From a virus (taxonomy: Duplodnaviria; Heunggongvirae; Uroviricota; Caudoviricetes), in IMG/VR virus record IMGVR_UViG_2913118216_000009: a stretch of 27,914 nt of DNA; one strand, given 5' to 3'. The position numbers and the translations under genes are program-made. Within the stretch, counting starts at the first letter, position 1. Each line of letters begins with the position of its first letter. The notes beneath the pieces are model-generated. The model did no database searches and had not been told where the DNA came from. It was given only the letters and a program-made list of their open reading frames with translations. Below, piece after piece: positions 1-27,618 of the stretch.

Positions 1-597
1 ATGAGTAACAACAAAAAGTCGCATTATGAGGATATGAAGAAGTTGTTGTGCGCGGACATACTGCACAGTAGTAAAAAATTCTCCTGGAGGAGAATCATAC
101 TACGTTGCTGGAGACAACCCGGACACAGATTCATGTGTTGGTGGAGGATAGCGAATTGCCTTTACTGTCAGGGAGGGAAATCAAGTATTAAGTGGGCACG
201 AAGAATCCACCGGAGACTTGTTTCAAAATACAATACTGATATTGGATTGGGGGCACAGATCGGGGAAAAATTCAAAATTTATCACTTCGTTGGAATAGTC
301 ATTTGTCCCCAGGCTGTGATTGGCAAAAATGTTCGTATCCGACAAAACACAACGATTGGATTAAAAACAGTTGAAGGAATCAAAGCCATCAGGATCGGAG
401 ACAATGTCGAGATTGGTGCAAATTCATGCATCATCGGTGATGATCTGACCATTGGTGATAACGTGACAATTGGTGCTATGTCATTCGTTAACCGAAACAT
501 TCCTGCTAATAGTGTCTTTATAACCCGCAGAGCCGCACAACTACTACCGCTTGATACGCACTCCACCTCTAACTATTCTGAACAACACAACAAGTGA
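1..597 (+). CDS. Hexapeptide-repeat (left-handed beta-helix) O-acetyltransferase, CysE/WbbJ-like; probable moron or flanking host gene
   Basis: 198-aa ORF starting at window position 1; repeated [LIV]-G-x-x-x-x hexapeptides (IGDNVEIGANSCIIGDDLTIGDNVTIGAMSFV) and an N-terminal region resembling serine acetyltransferases; markedly AT-rich codon usage compared with neighbouring phage genes; convergent with the tail operon. Confidence 0.7.
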   Translation: MSNNKKSHYEDMKKLLCADILHSSKKFSWRRIILRCWRQPGHRFMCWWRIANCLYCQGGKSSIKWARRIHRRLVSKYNTDIGLGAQIGEKFKIYHFVGIVICPQAVIGKNVRIRQNTTIGLKTVEGIKAIRIGDNVEIGANSCIIGDDLTIGDNVTIGAMSFVNRNIPANSVFITRRAAQLLPLDTHSTSNYSEQHNK

Positions 598-651: not shown

Positions 652-2355
652 TTAGGCAATAATCCCCTGATATTTTTCCCGGGTCTGCCCGGCTTTCGTC
701 CCTGTCTGGGTGAACGCGGCGGCATTGGTTGGCGTCCCAACGGAGGGGTGCGAATGGCTCGCGCATTGCTGCGCCAGCTCTTCCAGTAAATCAATGGTGT
801 CCAGCATCATGGTTAGGGCGTTGATACTCTCACTGCCAATATGGACAGTTGCCCCCATGACCTGCTGACCTCCAGCGGCCACTGATTTACGCAATGCGGC
901 AATCTTCTCTGTCAGGCTTTCGCCAACCTCCACGGCTACAGCACCACCCACTTTAGTAGACTGCCGTCCTGTTATGTCCGTTTCTTCGTTTCCTTCAATA
1001 CTGGACAACCTGTTACCTTTCACCGCCTGGCTATAATCACCGGTGCTGACCTGCTGGATGGCTCCAGCCAGCAATATGGCGGTTCCCAGTACCGTAGTTT
1101 TATCCGTAGCTTTCACCGTGGTTTCACGGCTTACCAGTTCGCGCTGTTCCGTATCGGCTTTTACGGTTCGCGCCATTGATGTTTCGCTGATGGTGTGATC
1201 GGTCTGCCTTACCCAGTCTCCAGCCTGAGTCACCCTCTGCGATACTTCTTCCCGCTGCTGCTGCAATTGCTCACCGGGTTTAACGTCCGGCAGGCTGGTA
1301 CCATCCGGCAGCGTCTGCCTGATAAAGGGTTTATCCGGTCTGCCTCCCGTGAATGCAACCTCAACCAGCGTCCCTTCTGGCGGAAACTGGAACATGCCTG
1401 AATCATTCCCGGCCATCGGTACCGGCAACGGCACCGCTGAATAAACAGGCGTCTGATTGTCCGGGTTTCCGTCTGCGTCAAGCAACTGCACGTCCACGGC
1501 ATAACGTGGCCGGAAAGGATCGGCAAAGTTACCGCTTTTTACCGGCTCTGAATACGCCACGACTCTGGCCATCTTTGGCAAATGAAGCCCGGATGCCAGT
1601 TCAGGGTAATGGCTTTCAATCTGCCTTTGTGCTGGTGTTTTCTGCAAAGGTTTACCCGTTACGCGGTTTCTCGGCATCCATGTGATCGCCATCGTGTCAT
1701 TCGTCAGATGAACCTTAGTCACGCGCTCACCGTTCATCTCCACCCCTGGCCGCATAGTCTGGATCACTGGTAATGTTACAGAGTTACCGCCAGCAGCCCC
1801 CTGGCTGAACTCTGATGGGATTTCTACGGGACGACCGGCAAACAATGACTTTTCTGCGCCACCGACGTAAAGCGAACCATCAGGAAACTGGTACCAGATG
1901 TAATCCTGGATACTGAACGCCCTTCCCAGATTGTTCAGCAACTGATAACCAGTACCGTTATGGGTAAAATGTGGGATAGGGGTATCGCTGTACTGTGCGT
2001 CAGGCACACTGACCGTGATCCCGCTGTGTTCTTCCAACCAGACCGCAATTTCACGCAAAGTCGGGTGTTGAAACGAACATGGCCACATCCTTTCAAACAC
2101 ACCTGCCAACTCACGAATGAACAGACGCTGAAAACCGTTTTCAGCAGGCTGCGATCGCTCCACGTACCCCGTAAACCAGCGCAAAAGCAGATCAGTATAC
2201 CCCACATCCAGCCGCACCAGTTTTCCGGTGTAATCTGTTGTTGTCTCTGCGGTGATGAAGCCCCGGCCGCAGCTGTTCAGCTCCAGTACCAGGCTGGCAT
2301 CCACCAGGTGAACTTCATCCGTTGAAAGGTATAGGCGTTTTACTGGTTTCATCAT
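652..2355 (-). CDS. Baseplate hub / central spike protein (gp27/gpD/VgrG-like N-terminal region with a long C-terminal extension)
   Basis: 567-aa ORF ending the tail operon; N-terminal segment (LLRWFTGYVERSQP...LFIRELAGVFERMW...TLREIAVWLEEHSGITV) resembles the pattern I recall for the gp27/GPD/VgrG hub fold; start overlaps the stop of the upstream gene. Confidence 0.45.
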   Translation of the reverse strand: MMKPVKRLYLSTDEVHLVDASLVLELNSCGRGFITAETTTDYTGKLVRLDVGYTDLLLRWFTGYVERSQPAENGFQRLFIRELAGVFERMWPCSFQHPTLREIAVWLEEHSGITVSVPDAQYSDTPIPHFTHNGTGYQLLNNLGRAFSIQDYIWYQFPDGSLYVGGAEKSLFAGRPVEIPSEFSQGAAGGNSVTLPVIQTMRPGVEMNGERVTKVHLTNDTMAITWMPRNRVTGKPLQKTPAQRQIESHYPELASGLHLPKMARVVAYSEPVKSGNFADPFRPRYAVDVQLLDADGNPDNQTPVYSAVPLPVPMAGNDSGMFQFPPEGTLVEVAFTGGRPDKPFIRQTLPDGTSLPDVKPGEQLQQQREEVSQRVTQAGDWVRQTDHTISETSMARTVKADTEQRELVSRETTVKATDKTTVLGTAILLAGAIQQVSTGDYSQAVKGNRLSSIEGNEETDITGRQSTKVGGAVAVEVGESLTEKIAALRKSVAAGGQQVMGATVHIGSESINALTMMLDTIDLLEELAQQCASHSHPSVGTPTNAAAFTQTGTKAGQTREKYQGIIA

Positions 2356-2900
2356 TAACCCAAAGCATCATTGACGGGCTTCAGTACCTTGCGTTCAAAC
2401 CACGTCAGTTTTTCTTCATCTTCTCCGGCAGACTGGCCACCGGACTGTCCCGCACTAACGGCAGTCTGTTTTTTTGCGGTCGTCTTACCTGTTGCCCTGG
2501 CCTCTTGCTTTTCCTGCACGCTGATATGTTCCGCCAGTGTGAATGTCACCAGCCAGGACATTTTCCCATCTTGCTGGGGGGCATCCACCGTTCCGCTGAA
2601 CGTTGCTTCACGAAAATTAACAGCACGGGCAACTTCATGCACCACGCGGTATTTCTGGCGATTACCACTGGCATCGGTAGTACTGGCCAGCTCAAAAATA
2701 CGCTTTAGTATTCCAGGCTGTTTAAAAGGTATTTCACCGCTGATCCGCAGTTCCTTTCCCTTTGCTCCCTGCTCTGATTTTGTTGTGGCGCTGGTCTGGC
2801 CGGACTGATCTTTATCCTGAAATTGCTGTGAAACAGTCACCCGCATGTTTTTCAGCTGGATGGCCTCGCCATTAAGCGCCAGTGTCGGGATCGAAGTCAT
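2355..2900 (-). CDS. Phage tail-associated protein, function unknown
   Basis: 181-aa ORF translationally coupled between the 253-aa ORF and the hub gene; typical GC content; no recognisable motif. Confidence 0.35.
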   Translation of the reverse strand: MTSIPTLALNGEAIQLKNMRVTVSQQFQDKDQSGQTSATTKSEQGAKGKELRISGEIPFKQPGILKRIFELASTTDASGNRQKYRVVHEVARAVNFREATFSGTVDAPQQDGKMSWLVTFTLAEHISVQEKQEARATGKTTAKKQTAVSAGQSGGQSAGEDEEKLTWFERKVLKPVNDALG

Positions 2901-3633
2901 GAATCATTCCCTTTATTCCATCAAGATTATCACCAACCAGCATCATGGCAGCGGTGTAAACGGCAGGCTGCTGCGGAATGTCCTTCATCAGTTCCAGTAA
3001 CGTGGTGCCGGTGTCTCCGCTGGCAGTAAAAACCCACGCTCTGGCACTTTTTCCCTGTAAATCATTCAGGCCGCTGGCCACATCACTGATAAGCTGGTCA
3101 CGCAACTGCGTGAACTCGCCCAGCTGTTTTTTCAGCCCTTCGATATCAAACCCGGCACCCGCCACCTTTTGTGCCTGACTGATTGCAGCAGCAGATAAAG
3201 CTGCCCTGCTGGTTGGTACAGACAGTGGAATGGACGCAGGTAACGCTGCGGCGGCTTTCGCCGGGATTTGCATCTTTTCAATAGCCAGCGCTGCGGCGGA
3301 TTGTGCCAGCCGTTTGACCTGCGTGAATGCCGGAGCGGGGAAAATCCCGACCAGGTTATTCAGGCTGGTCATAAAGTTTTCCTGCGTCTGTCCGGTGACC
3401 ATCATAATCACCACGTCCGCATTCCCCCCTGTTCCGGCCAGGCGTTCAGCAAGATAGCGAACAGCATTAACCGGGCTGAGATATGCCCCGTTCGCTGTCT
3501 GCTGTCCCAGCCCATAAATCCACGGATGCGCAGGGACGATCGAACAGTTCAGCGCAGCAACAGAATCTGTGAAGGCCAGACATGCTTCACGCCACATTTC
3601 CAGGCACCTCCGGCCACACAATTTCCGGAGCAT
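2872..3633 (-). CDS. Phage tail-associated protein, function unknown (likely start near 3597)
   Basis: 253-aa ORF immediately downstream of the tail fiber assembly gene, overlapping it by a few codons; Ala-rich central region; no recognisable catalytic motif. Confidence 0.35.
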   Translation of the reverse strand: MLRKLCGRRCLEMWREACLAFTDSVAALNCSIVPAHPWIYGLGQQTANGAYLSPVNAVRYLAERLAGTGGNADVVIMMVTGQTQENFMTSLNNLVGIFPAPAFTQVKRLAQSAAALAIEKMQIPAKAAAALPASIPLSVPTSRAALSAAAISQAQKVAGAGFDIEGLKKQLGEFTQLRDQLISDVASGLNDLQGKSARAWVFTASGDTGTTLLELMKDIPQQPAVYTAAMMLVGDNLDGIKGMIHDFDPDTGA

Positions 3634-4174
3634 CTTCCGGTTGAATACGGTTCAATAAAACCCGGAATTTTTTCCATGCAGTAAGTAGAAGTACTTCTTC
3701 TTCAGTCGCCATGTCTAAATCAACGGCATCCTGCAACGTGGCAATGGCGTCATTGGCCTGTTTAAGCAGGCTTTTCTTTTCGGCGTCTGCCTCGCTGACT
3801 AATGCAATTCGCATGGCCTCCGCATCATCCACCCACGCCTTACCATTCCATTTTTGCCAGGCATTAGCTGGTGCTAACGTGGTTGTCCTTTCCGGATAAG
3901 CGCCTGGCTCGGTGATCACCAGTTCATTACCGTTTTCTGTATCAAACACAACCTCACCACGGTGATCCTCACGGGAAATCCATCTTTGCTTCTCTGAATC
4001 AAAAATCGCCACAAACCCCGCTTTGATTGCCGGTGGCTTTATCGTGGTGCAGTTAGCTGGCAGTCCGGTATGCGCAGGAATAAAAGCATCACCCAAACCA
4101 ATAAATTCATTCGTGTCAGAGCGCAGGTTATAAACGGTAACTGTTTGATCCGTTTCACTCATTTTAAAAGTCAT
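3587..4174 (-). CDS. Tail fiber assembly chaperone (Tfa / P2 gpG-like)
   Basis: 195-aa ORF directly downstream of the tail fiber gene; size, position and C-terminal sequence (EEEVLLLTAWKKFRVLLNRI) are typical of the Tfa family. Confidence 0.7.
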   Translation of the reverse strand: MTFKMSETDQTVTVYNLRSDTNEFIGLGDAFIPAHTGLPANCTTIKPPAIKAGFVAIFDSEKQRWISREDHRGEVVFDTENGNELVITEPGAYPERTTTLAPANAWQKWNGKAWVDDAEAMRIALVSEADAEKKSLLKQANDAIATLQDAVDLDMATEEEVLLLTAWKKFRVLLNRIQPEDAPEIVWPEVPGNVA

Positions 4175-5748
4175 TATGCGAGTCTCACTATGTAGTTAAA
4201 TACGATGTTTTTAACGGTCGTTTCTTCATTGCCCGACGCGGCGACGGTAATGGTGTGACTATGTGCGCCTATTGCTACGGTATGAGAGTGAGCTCCAATT
4301 CCTACAGAATGGCTATGTGCGCCAATCCCTACAATATGAGCATGGTTGCCAGCCAAATCCGTATTACCTGTTGTTACGTTATCGCCGCCCTGACCTCTAT
4401 TGATATCTCCGTTTTGAGTGGCCTGCCCCTTAACATATGTATGAGTATGTGCACCAGTTGTATCGGTTGTTTTGGTTCCGTAATCAAATGTGCTCACAGC
4501 TCTAGTGCCGTAGTCAAAGGATGATGTTGACTTCGTCCCCAGATCGGTACTGAATGCACTAGCAGTGTGGGCATGGGATTTATTGCCATCATCTTCATAG
4601 GACAAAACTGCACGGCCATCAGGTTTTCCTTTGATCGTCTGGCGGCGCATATCAGGAAGAACACCCGATGGGTATACAATAGCCAGTCGCTGGTAAGCCA
4701 CTGGATCAAACACCTGCCCCTGCATGATTGCGTGACCCGCTGGTGGAATATCAGTCGGCCAAGGAAGTGGTACTCCAACCGGCACAACATCGCTAATGCT
4801 TAAGACCGCCAGCTCACCCAGCCCAAGATTTTTTCTGGCTTCCGCCTTGTCATTGATATCGGCAAGGTTTGCATCCTTACGCAAAAAATCGCTGCTGGCC
4901 TGTTGATCGCTCAGACTGCCTTTTGGCCTTAAATCCGTGATGTTGCCATCCACATCAATGCTGGCCACCGCAAATACAAAATGCTGAATACCGTTCTGAA
5001 CATAATCAGTCAGATTTTCTACAACCGTGACTTTACTCTGTACACTCCAGACACTGCTCAGAATCCCTGTCCAGCACACATCCAGCCAGACTTTTACCGA
5101 CATTGTCGTCACTGTAATATCCTGATTCGCATCCAGTGACACACGCAGTCCAGCCACATACCCTGTGCCTTTCGTGACATAAAACTGATTGCCGGTTTTG
5201 GCTACCAGATACCCGTTACCAAAAAACGCCGCCGCGCCATAAATATCTGTATTTTCCAGACGCTGGCGCTCATCAATTCCGGCCAAACGTGCAGTAAAAT
5301 CAATCTGCCAGGTTTCAGCGGGCGTATTAATCCCAGTTTCTGTTTGTGCACCGTTGTACTCCATCAGAAACGAGCGGGTCAGCACGTTCCCCTGTTGCCC
5401 TTCTTTTGTTTTCAGTTTCTGCTGTGCTGGTGCATGGACAATCATTGCCAGCGTACCGCTAGCCTTATTGAGCAGACCAATCCAGTTAAAACTGAAATCC
5501 CCCACATCTGCGCCCAGCACTACGGAATAGACCACCCTATTTTCATCCACCACACCGGTACGGGTAACAGCTTGCCGGTGAACAATCTGTGCTGTCGGGG
5601 GCAACCCTTCATTGCGATCAACAGGGATATCCGCGTTTAAATCCGGCACACTGGCAAAAACAAATTCGTCCAGTAGTACCGGTTCACCTGTTGCGCCCTG
5701 CTGTGCTTTCCAGTTTTCAAACGCCAGTGTGATGGCTGTCTGTGACAT
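4174..5748 (-). CDS. Tail fiber protein (receptor-binding; P2 gpH / Mu S-like N-terminal domain, repeat-rich C-terminal tip)
   Basis: 524-aa ORF; conserved-looking N-terminal fiber domain; C-terminal part has tandem peptide repeats (SxFDYGT x2 and GIGAHSH[ST]V x3-4, i.e. HxH motifs); followed by a Tfa chaperone. Confidence 0.8.
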
Positions 5749-26577: not shown

Positions 26578-27618
26578 ATGTCTGTAAGAAAATTAACAAA
26601 TGGCCAGTGGATTGCCGATTTCTACACGGTGGATCGAAGCAATGGTAAAGCCGGTAAGCGTATTCGTAAAAAATTCGCTACAAAAGGCGAAGCCCTGGCC
26701 TACGAGAACTATACGCTTCAGCAAGTGGAGAACTCCCCCTGGCTTGGCGAGGGTAAAGACCTCCGTACTCTAAGCGACCTAATCAACATGTGGTACGAAC
26801 GCCACGGCGTAGCTTTGCGCAACGGTCAAAAGCGTAAAGACGCAATGACATGGGCGGCGGAGTGTATGGGATTCCCGCTGGCCACAGAGTTTAATGCTCA
26901 ACTGTTTACAGCATACCGCGCAAAAAGGCTTGATGGGCATTATGCCCGCACTAACAGAGTATCCAAGGTTTCCCCGAAAACAATGAACCTTGAACATGCT
27001 TACTTTCTGGCTATGTTCAATGAGCTTAAACGGATTGGAGAATGGTCAGCCCCTAACCCACTGGAAAACGTCAGACAGTATCGCACTGATGAAACCGAAA
27101 TGGCTTTCCTCACTGCTGAAGAAATTGATCGGCTTTTGCTGGAATGCAAACGCAGTAAAGTAAGTTACTTAGAGTTAGTAGTAAAAATTTGCCTGGCGAC
27201 CGGCGCAAGGTGGAATGAAGCGGCGACACTCAAAAGCTCCCAGATTGCTGGCGGAAAAGTCACCTTCATAAAAACAAAAGGGAAAAGGAACCGTACCATT
27301 CCCTTAGATGATGAACTTCTGGCTGAAATTTCGGAAACAAAAGGCGCTCTGTTTCCGAAGCCCTGCTATAACGCTTTTCGTTCCGCCCTGGAACGTGCAG
27401 GTATTGAATTGCCTTCTGGTCAGCTAACCCACGTATTACGCCATACATTTGCCAGCCACTTTATGATGAATGGCGGGAACATTCTGGTTCTGCAAAAAAT
27501 TCTCGGCCACGCTGACATCACTATGACAATGCGTTATGCCCATTTCGCCCCAAGCCACCTTGAAGATGCTATGCGACTTAACCCCTTAAAATGTCGCAAA
27601 AATGTCGCTGCAGCTTAG
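26578..27618 (+). CDS. int: Tyrosine integrase (P2/186 family site-specific recombinase)
   Basis: 346-aa ORF; C-terminal catalytic region HVLRHTFASHFMMNGGNILVLQKILGHADITMTMRYAHF with the conserved R...H-x-x-R...Y arrangement; located at the prophage end. Confidence 0.9.
   Translation: MSVRKLTNGQWIADFYTVDRSNGKAGKRIRKKFATKGEALAYENYTLQQVENSPWLGEGKDLRTLSDLINMWYERHGVALRNGQKRKDAMTWAAECMGFPLATEFNAQLFTAYRAKRLDGHYARTNRVSKVSPKTMNLEHAYFLAMFNELKRIGEWSAPNPLENVRQYRTDETEMAFLTAEEIDRLLLECKRSKVSYLELVVKICLATGARWNEAATLKSSQIAGGKVTFIKTKGKRNRTIPLDDELLAEISETKGALFPKPCYNAFRSALERAGIELPSGQLTHVLRHTFASHFMMNGGNILVLQKILGHADITMTMRYAHFAPSHLEDAMRLNPLKCRKNVAAA

Follow-up and report, generated by a model that had tools for sequence, protein, structure and literature searches.

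A conserved HxH scaffold and an exchanged head segment in the tail fibre tip of a Peduoviridae-type prophage

The distal tip of the T4 tail fibre protein gp37 consists of a collar, D10 (residues 811-881 and 1010-1026), and a needle, D11 (residues 882-1009), in which HxH motifs (two histidines one residue apart) hold seven axial iron ions; the iron-binding H929 and H931, which border the tip, are essential, and loop residues 933-959 contact lipopolysaccharide (LPS) and OmpC, the receptor-binding residues having been mapped by mutagenesis (PMC6957217). In the T4 structure the chain doubles back at the head, which gives a six-stranded needle (PMC12609058). That the C-terminal part of T4 g37, together with g38, derives from lambda-like sequences is long established (PMC3157838), and Magaziner and Salmond (2022) have described a "T4- and lambda-based" receptor-binding protein family, where homology is confined to the last ~215 amino acids and divergence is seen in the receptor-specificity region; phage phiNP, which carries a member, binds LPS core glucose (PMC9659904). 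In this study, we examined the tail fibre gene of IMG/VR virus record IMGVR_UViG_2913118216_000009, a stretch of 27,914 nucleotides (hereafter the window) which, by its gene content, is a complete P2/HP1-like (Peduoviridae-type) prophage. A preliminary description, made from the letters alone, had drawn attention to histidine-containing repeats at 4174-4600, that is, fibre residues ~384-524 plus the stop codon. Our findings support a reading, to which we assign a probability of about 0.88, where this region is the distal receptor-binding tip of the prophage tail fibre, a member of the T4 gp37, lambda Stf and phiNP ORF6 family with an HxH scaffold and a variable head. As such, the fibre is an ordinary member of a well-described tip family, and it confirms rather than changes current understanding.

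In a phmmer search of PDB, fibre residues 317-524 aligned with chain residues 24-242 of 2xgf_A, the solved T4 tip (E=3.8e-66; ~55% identity), and tblastn gave 54% identity between the tip and T4 gp37. The likeness of the HxH motifs to those of T4, pointed out in the preliminary description, is thus one of true homology and not only of analogy. The collar, the FDYGT units, the HxH motifs and the C-terminal strand each keep the register of 2XGF, identity to T4 amounting to 46 of 73 positions in the collar, 28 of 47 in the descending strand, 9 of 30 in the head, 25 of 34 in the ascending strand and 18 of 24 at the C-terminus (table 1). The two descending (starting at residues 392 and 434) and four ascending motifs (469, 478, 487 and 496) align with the T4 motifs at 883, 929, 966, 980, 989 and 998, T4 itself having three descending (883, 915 and 929) and four ascending ones (966, 980, 989 and 998). 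The tail that follows the last HxH always counts 29 residues among the parsed homologues. As in gp37, a variable head lies between the last descending and the first ascending motif. Given that the chain doubles back at the head, the nonamers nearest the C-terminus would form the ascending strand on its way to the collar, and the spatial tip would be residues 437-466; the placing of the repeats at the "tip" therefore holds in that they belong to the C-terminal tip region of a tail fibre, with the gene for the tail fibre assembly chaperone (Tfa) next to it, and fails in that the ascending repeats would not sit at the tip in space. The collar was recognized by Pfam (PF07484, E=1.1e-6; 29.0 bits against a gathering cutoff of 24) and is the best-modelled part (predicted local distance difference test score, pLDDT, about 88-93) of an AlphaFold2 (AF2) monomer of the tip built on an alignment of 116 sequences (overall pLDDT 73; predicted template modelling score, pTM, 0.40). 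The top Foldseek match of this model was again 2xgf_A (E=5.4e-14), but with a template modelling (TM) score of only 0.36 and a root-mean-square deviation of 11.9 Å; Foldseek also matched the collar of T4 gp12 (1ocy/5iv5). The family is large, with tblastn matches in 577 phage records, including T4, lambda Stf and phiNP, and 1,416 representative proteins matched with HMMER. The linker that precedes the tip has a motif which also matches repeats of the short tail fibre gp92 (PDB 9zd7).

When compared with T4 gp37 (~54-56% identity, with collar, FDYGT units, HxH on both strands, the 29-residue tail and the C-terminus in common), the window fibre has six HxH motifs rather than seven. T4 combines two layers of 10-residue descending and 9-residue ascending units with one 14/14 layer bearing HxH on both strands, whereas the window fibre has three 10/9 layers and no 14/14 layer. 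The T4 head, of 34 residues against 30, is essentially unrelated; the T4 tip is mounted on a shaft of ~800 residues, and that of the window on a 316-residue N-terminal part of P2/HP1 type; finally, T4 employs gp38 and gp57A where the window encodes a lambda-type Tfa. The side fibre Stf of lambda (Ur-lambda) belongs to the same tip family (47% identity, tblastn) and shares the one-base overlap between fibre stop and chaperone start, with 55% identity in Tfa, but it has eight HxH motifs and a head gap of 48 residues, and serves a siphovirus. The closest characterized tip relative is ORF6 of the Citrobacter rodentium phage phiNP, a tail collar fibre protein with 66% identity, the same layer composition, (3,0,0,3) in the notation given below, and Tfa directly downstream; unlike the window fibre, it is 282 amino acids long with a different, shorter N-terminal part, and it carries another head cassette, its receptor being known (LPS Glc-II). 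The long and short fibres of the Felixounavirus Bas63 also show a tip of collar, needle and head with six or seven di-histidine motifs (cryo-electron microscopy, PMC12609058), although Felix-like phages are much more distant and match only residues ~68-194 of the tip at 34-47% identity (tblastn). Over its full length, the fibre finds its orthologues in the Escherichia phages ESSI2_ev015, ESSI2_ev040, ESSI2_ev129 and ESSI2_ev239 (Quadragintavirus and Evevirus) and related E. coli prophages (82-88% amino acid identity), where the gene order baseplate J, tail protein, fibre, tfa is the same; with the annotated tail fibre proteins of these Peduoviridae phages and prophages identity is 84-88%. At the DNA level the nearest relatives of the fibre/tfa pair are these four phages and 36 E. 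coli prophages (84-91% identity), no identical copy being found elsewhere among the DNA relatives searched, and the best full-length fibre relatives in 185,579 species-representative genomes are 54-76% identical.

The peptide repeats are real and strongly nonrandom. Translation bears out the tandem units of the preliminary description: SxFDYGT(R/K) occurs twice, with FDYGT at residues 411 and 421, and (V/A)(G/A)IGAHSH(S/T) three times in near-identical form (GIGAHSHSV, 474-482; GIGAHSHTV, 483-491; AIGAHSHTI, 492-500), with a degenerate unit, LAGNHAHIV (465-473), in front of them. Of the 16 histidines of the protein, 12 lie in the six HxH motifs; 20,000 shuffles of the protein gave 0.45 HxH on average and never more than 4. 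At the DNA level, on the other hand, the repeats are old and diverged. Matching near-repeats are present, as had been claimed, but they are weak: Tandem Repeats Finder reports 2.9 copies of a 27-nucleotide period at 4256-4333 with 68% matches (score 79), a repeat search gave copies 65-81% identical, and the three full 27-nucleotide units, compared in codon register, are 63-67% identical, with different codons at 14 of the 21 identical residues of the full nonamers. The longest exact direct repeat measures 11 nucleotides, a length reached in 7 of 300 shuffles and thus close to chance. Such DNA would be a poor substrate for slippage. This bears on the explanation originally offered, in which the tandem repeats are a contingency site where slippage or recombination changes repeat number and thereby host range. 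To go by its title, a 1996 paper by Tetart and colleagues (cited in PMC6957217 and PMC3157838) reported that T4 expanded its host range by duplicating a small domain of its fibre adhesin; repeat number does differ in distant homologues, where a tip has 5 to 9 HxH motifs, and fibres of other genera sharing the N-terminus of the window fibre have two, three or four layers. Yet the long, near-identical DNA units and the copy-number polymorphism in close relatives that mark contingency loci are not seen here. Nine close full-length relatives (82-88% amino acid identity) agree in repeat number and keep every HxH histidine; the units mostly use different codons; within the needle, conservation is highest in the repeats, variation falling in the non-repeat head; and a slip in one array would unbalance the two strands, while no unbalanced form occurs among 237 homologues. 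We thus consider a slippage-driven contingency site very unlikely. The other part of the earlier argument, that lack of repeat variability among homologues would speak against it, fares unevenly: repeat number does vary in distant homologues, yet only as coupled descending and ascending pairs. The candidate plus-strand open reading frames over the repeats (4255..4524 and 4567..4803) were rejected as unsupported by-products of repeat composition.

Where, then, does variation sit? In a set of 136 homologues sharing the architecture of the window fibre, pairwise identity averages 0.62 in the collar, 0.72 in the descending strand, 0.34 in the head, 0.73 in the ascending strand and 0.82 in the C-terminal strand, and head length ranges from 30 to 46 residues; the HxH histidine columns are invariant across 116 homologues (alignment A2). 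With the repeats 72-73% identical on average and the segment between them 34%, they are not the variable host-range site they had been taken for. Residues 437-466 exist as four unrelated cassettes in the nine close relatives (types of the window and ev015, of ev239, of EH09 and of 2018-18.25PC), and the DNA of this segment is only 24-44% identical to nonmatching cassettes, against 73-98% in the flanks. By homology with T4, the segment probably provides the receptor-contacting loops. The cassette of the window is common to ESSI2_ev015 and ESSI2_ev040 only (98% nucleotide identity at residues 449-463), whereas its last HxH unit is nearer ESSI2_ev239 and ESSI2_ev129 (93% vs 73% at residues 494-508), a combination which suggests a breakpoint inside the HxH array. 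Exchanges in or near conserved motifs of these adhesins are a published idea (PMC3157838, citing Tetart 1996/1998), and a breakpoint in the array fits it. A 59-nucleotide exact match to the head cassette was searched for in the 185,579 species-representative genomes, and none was found. The collar holds a second mosaic patch at residues 346-360, with 56-58% nucleotide identity to most relatives and 87% to a prophage of E. coli EH09-18-41, its flanks being 76-93% identical; the collar, too, has thus recombined in pieces. On a larger scale, most matches in 78 related genome loci end at fibre residues 274-328, two loci (L067 and L076) match only residues 281/319-524 and so bear the tip on a different N-terminus, and for the majority of related fibres from other genera likeness is confined to residues 1 to ~282/320. 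These boundaries support the view that the whole tip is a swappable host-range module. The earlier proposal of the fibre tip as host-range determinant consequently stands for the tip as a whole, its variable site being the head and not the repeats. An invertible switch of the Mu G or P1 C type was also considered and rejected, with no invertase gene or alternative fibre C-terminus adjoining the fibre.

Repeat number follows a strict pattern. In 237 parsed homologues, tips with 5 to 9 HxH motifs fall into seven architecture classes, written here as the numbers of descending 10-residue units, descending and ascending 14-residue HxH units, and ascending 9-residue spacings: (3,0,0,3) in 130 cases, (2,1,1,2) in 47, (2,0,0,2) in 36, (4,0,0,4) in 10, (3,1,1,3) in six, (6,0,0,6) in two and (5,0,0,5) in one, a few odd parses being explained by a decayed histidine or a one-residue indel. 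The number of 10-residue units (2-6) equals that of 9-residue spacings throughout, and the 14-residue units likewise agree (0 or 1) on both strands. The window fibre belongs to the commonest class, T4 to (2,1,1,2) and lambda to (3,1,1,3). Seven further loci (Siccibacter, Enterobacter, Kluyvera, Salmonella and others) conform to this pairing, with two, three or four layers on an N-terminus of the same type, and unequal unit numbers were found neither in these nor in the 237 homologues. The matched numbers imply that the two repeat families noticed in the window are two halves of one needle layer. It is tempting to generalize that, across gp37/Stf tips, the needle may be a modular ruler of whole layers, changing length only by concerted gain or loss at two sites of the gene flanking the head cassette; we offer this as a tentative idea, with the odds leaning against it. 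That the number of di-histidines scales with needle length has already been suggested in the cryo-electron microscopy study of Bas63 (PMC12609058), and strict pairing would be a modest refinement of it, which may already be published. One possibility for the paired indels is that the whole inner hairpin would be replaced by a double crossover in the conserved repeats. We also observed five loci (L032, L036, L039, L043 and L076; Yersinia, Providencia, Arsenophonus and Leminorella) whose fibres share the collar and the returning C-terminal strand (..RNIAFLYIVRAA) but have, between them, a short histidine-poor insert in place of the HxH needle. They look like minimal needle-less tips and indicate that a collar loop has been elaborated into the needle.

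How would such a tip work? Going by the ~55% identity to the solved T4 structure, three chains would form the collar, each running down a thin needle, turning in a small head and returning, so that six strands make up the needle; each axial metal ion (iron in T4) would be held by six histidines, two in one HxH of every chain, and six HxH motifs thus predict six metal sites per fibre. The two repeats would form the two halves of a layer, three 10-residue TDLGTK/FDYGTK units running down and three 9-residue GxGAHxHxV spacings running up. The repeats would act as a conserved scaffold, with specificity in the ~30-residue head, a segment that related prophages swap as a cassette; homology for recombination between head alleles is probably supplied by the conserved HxH-coding flanks. 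Tfa, translationally coupled to the fibre gene, would fold the trimer. Could the iron itself meet the host? In the "Ferrojan" or Trojan horse hypothesis, put forward for HxH-bearing fibres (PMC11705849, citing Bonnain et al. 2016), tip iron is a ligand for a host siderophore or TonB-dependent receptor. In T4, though, the irons are buried on the needle axis and receptor contacts are made by residues of the head loop (PMC6957217), the close homologue phiNP has LPS core glucose as its receptor (PMC9659904), and here the HxH sites are invariant, with variation of the kind expected for specificity in the head. We find this role for the iron scarcely credible.

A conserved scaffold with an axial metal has its own weak points, and several results weigh against it. 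The clustering of the histidines rests on homology rather than on a model of the protein itself, the AF2 monomer being mediocre (pLDDT 73, TM 0.36 to 2xgf_A). The breakpoint suggested within the HxH array is drawn from few informative sites. The 237 concordant architectures are phylogenetically related and not independent, so that the pairing is in effect judged on about seven architecture classes. An E. coli prophage tail protein (P0099) that reads YNH at one ascending HxH site, its spacing being otherwise intact, suggests that individual sites may be dispensable. Finally, the sequence tells neither metal content nor metal identity. The HxH motifs could then bind another metal, such as zinc, or none at all, the histidines making up a packed polar core; gp12, the T4 short fibre, holds zinc, and the collar fold is common to it (Foldseek, 1ocy), while P0099 tolerates the loss of one histidine. 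With ~55% identity to gp37 and motifs in register, however, one would expect the octahedral six-histidine geometry to persist; seven irons are bound in T4 gp37, whose iron-binding histidines are essential (PMC6957217), and iron is also discussed for R-pyocin fibres (PMC6116203). Another metal, or none, is thus unlikely in our judgement, and a needle with axial iron is still the reading we prefer.

Tfa is encoded immediately downstream, as is the dedicated assembly chaperone of gp37-type tips. Over the full length it is 55% identical to the Tfa proteins of lambda and phiNP alike, and the C-terminal domain finds a match in Mu Tfa (PDB 5yvq_B, E=7.6e-7). The stop codon of the fibre gene and the start of tfa overlap in TAATG (4172..4176, minus strand), and the annotations of lambda stf/tfa (L010) and phiNP (L011) show an identical one-base overlap, which suggests conserved translational coupling. 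Among relatives, Tfa is 95-97% identical whatever the head cassette and does not covary with the head; it presumably recognizes the conserved scaffold.

At its other end, the fibre carries a P2/HP1-like baseplate-attachment part (PF12571 Phage_tail_fib, residues 3-159, E=8.9e-31), falls in PHROG tail-fibre families and is found in the order baseplate J, Tail_P2_I, fibre, tfa. Baseplate_J was matched with E=2.1e-28 and Tail_P2_I marginally (20.3 bits against a cutoff of 20.6). The tail-end set comprises baseplate J, a P2-I-like tail protein, fibre, Tfa, an HP1 ORF34-like baseplate protein and the spike; integrase, CI repressor, a CII-like regulator, the GPA replication protein, Ogr/Delta and head and tail genes complete the prophage. 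Some neighbours deserve mention in their own right. An open reading frame of 241-253 residues (phrog_1677, no Pfam match) directly follows and overlaps tfa; every relative has it there, with the gene for the HP1 ORF34-like baseplate protein on its other side. The baseplate spike, with an OB domain and a T4 gp5-like beta-helix at its residues 414-508, bears a single HxH of its own near the C-terminus (..QQCASHSHPSVG..), which recalls the iron-binding HxH described in P2 gpV and Mu gp45-type spikes (PMC11821841); HxH metal sites may thus be present in two separate organelles of the virion. The left edge of the window is occupied by a gene convergent to the tail genes, for a hexapeptide-repeat acetyltransferase (Pfam Hexapep) with 51% identity to the phiNP "serine acetyltransferase" that adjoins phiNP tfa, related genes thus occurring in both phages; in 5,426 complete E. 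coli genomes, megablast gave no match to it. The gene may be cargo with a role in LPS modification, putatively for lysogenic conversion or superinfection exclusion.

Table 1. Positions of the tail fibre, its tip segments and neighbouring features in the window
Feature	Position	Strand	Remarks
Tail fibre gene	4174..5748	minus	524 amino acids; stop codon 4174-4176; from the list of open reading frames
Module junction with conserved linker, residues ~282-320	4789..4905	minus	Baseplate-proximal part upstream, exchangeable tip downstream
Receptor-binding tip (collar, needle and head), residues 317-524	4177..4800	minus	Homologous to T4 gp37 ~808-1026
Collar domain core, residues 325-372	4633..4776	minus	Pfam PF07484 Collar
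Mosaic patch in collar, residues 346-360	4669..4713	minus	
HxH site 1 (H392, H394), descending strand, adjoining the collar	4567..4575	minus	Aligned with T4 H883/H885; invariant in 116 homologues
Three descending 10-residue units, residues 401-430 (include SxFDYGT repeat)	4459..4548	minus	Codon-register comparison
HxH site 2 (H434, H436), last descending, bordering the head	4441..4449	minus	Equivalent to T4 H929/H931
Hypervariable head segment, residues 437-466	4351..4440	minus	Corresponds to T4 residues 932-965
Ascending HxH array, residues 467-500, sites 3-6 at 9-residue spacing ((V/A)(G/A)IGAHSH repeat)	4249..4350	minus	Aligns with T4 HxH sites 966-1000
C-terminal strand returning to the collar, residues 501-524	4177..4248	minus	Comparison with T4 D10
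Tail fibre assembly chaperone (Tfa)	3587..4174	minus	Pfam PF02413 Caudo_TAP, E=2.1e-35
Conserved open reading frame, phrog_1677	2872..3633	minus	
Baseplate spike	652..2355	minus	
Hexapeptide-repeat acetyltransferase	1..597	plus	
Integrase	26578..27618		

Overall, the place to seek or engineer host specificity in this fibre is residues 437-466, and not the histidine repeats. Layers gained or lost only as matched pairs, HxH flanks that bracket an exchangeable head and a constant Tfa would be useful features for retargeting phages or tailocins. Should the pairing rule prove true, it raises the question of how two separated indels become fixed together and, if it is also unreported, would provide a design rule for engineering fibre reach.

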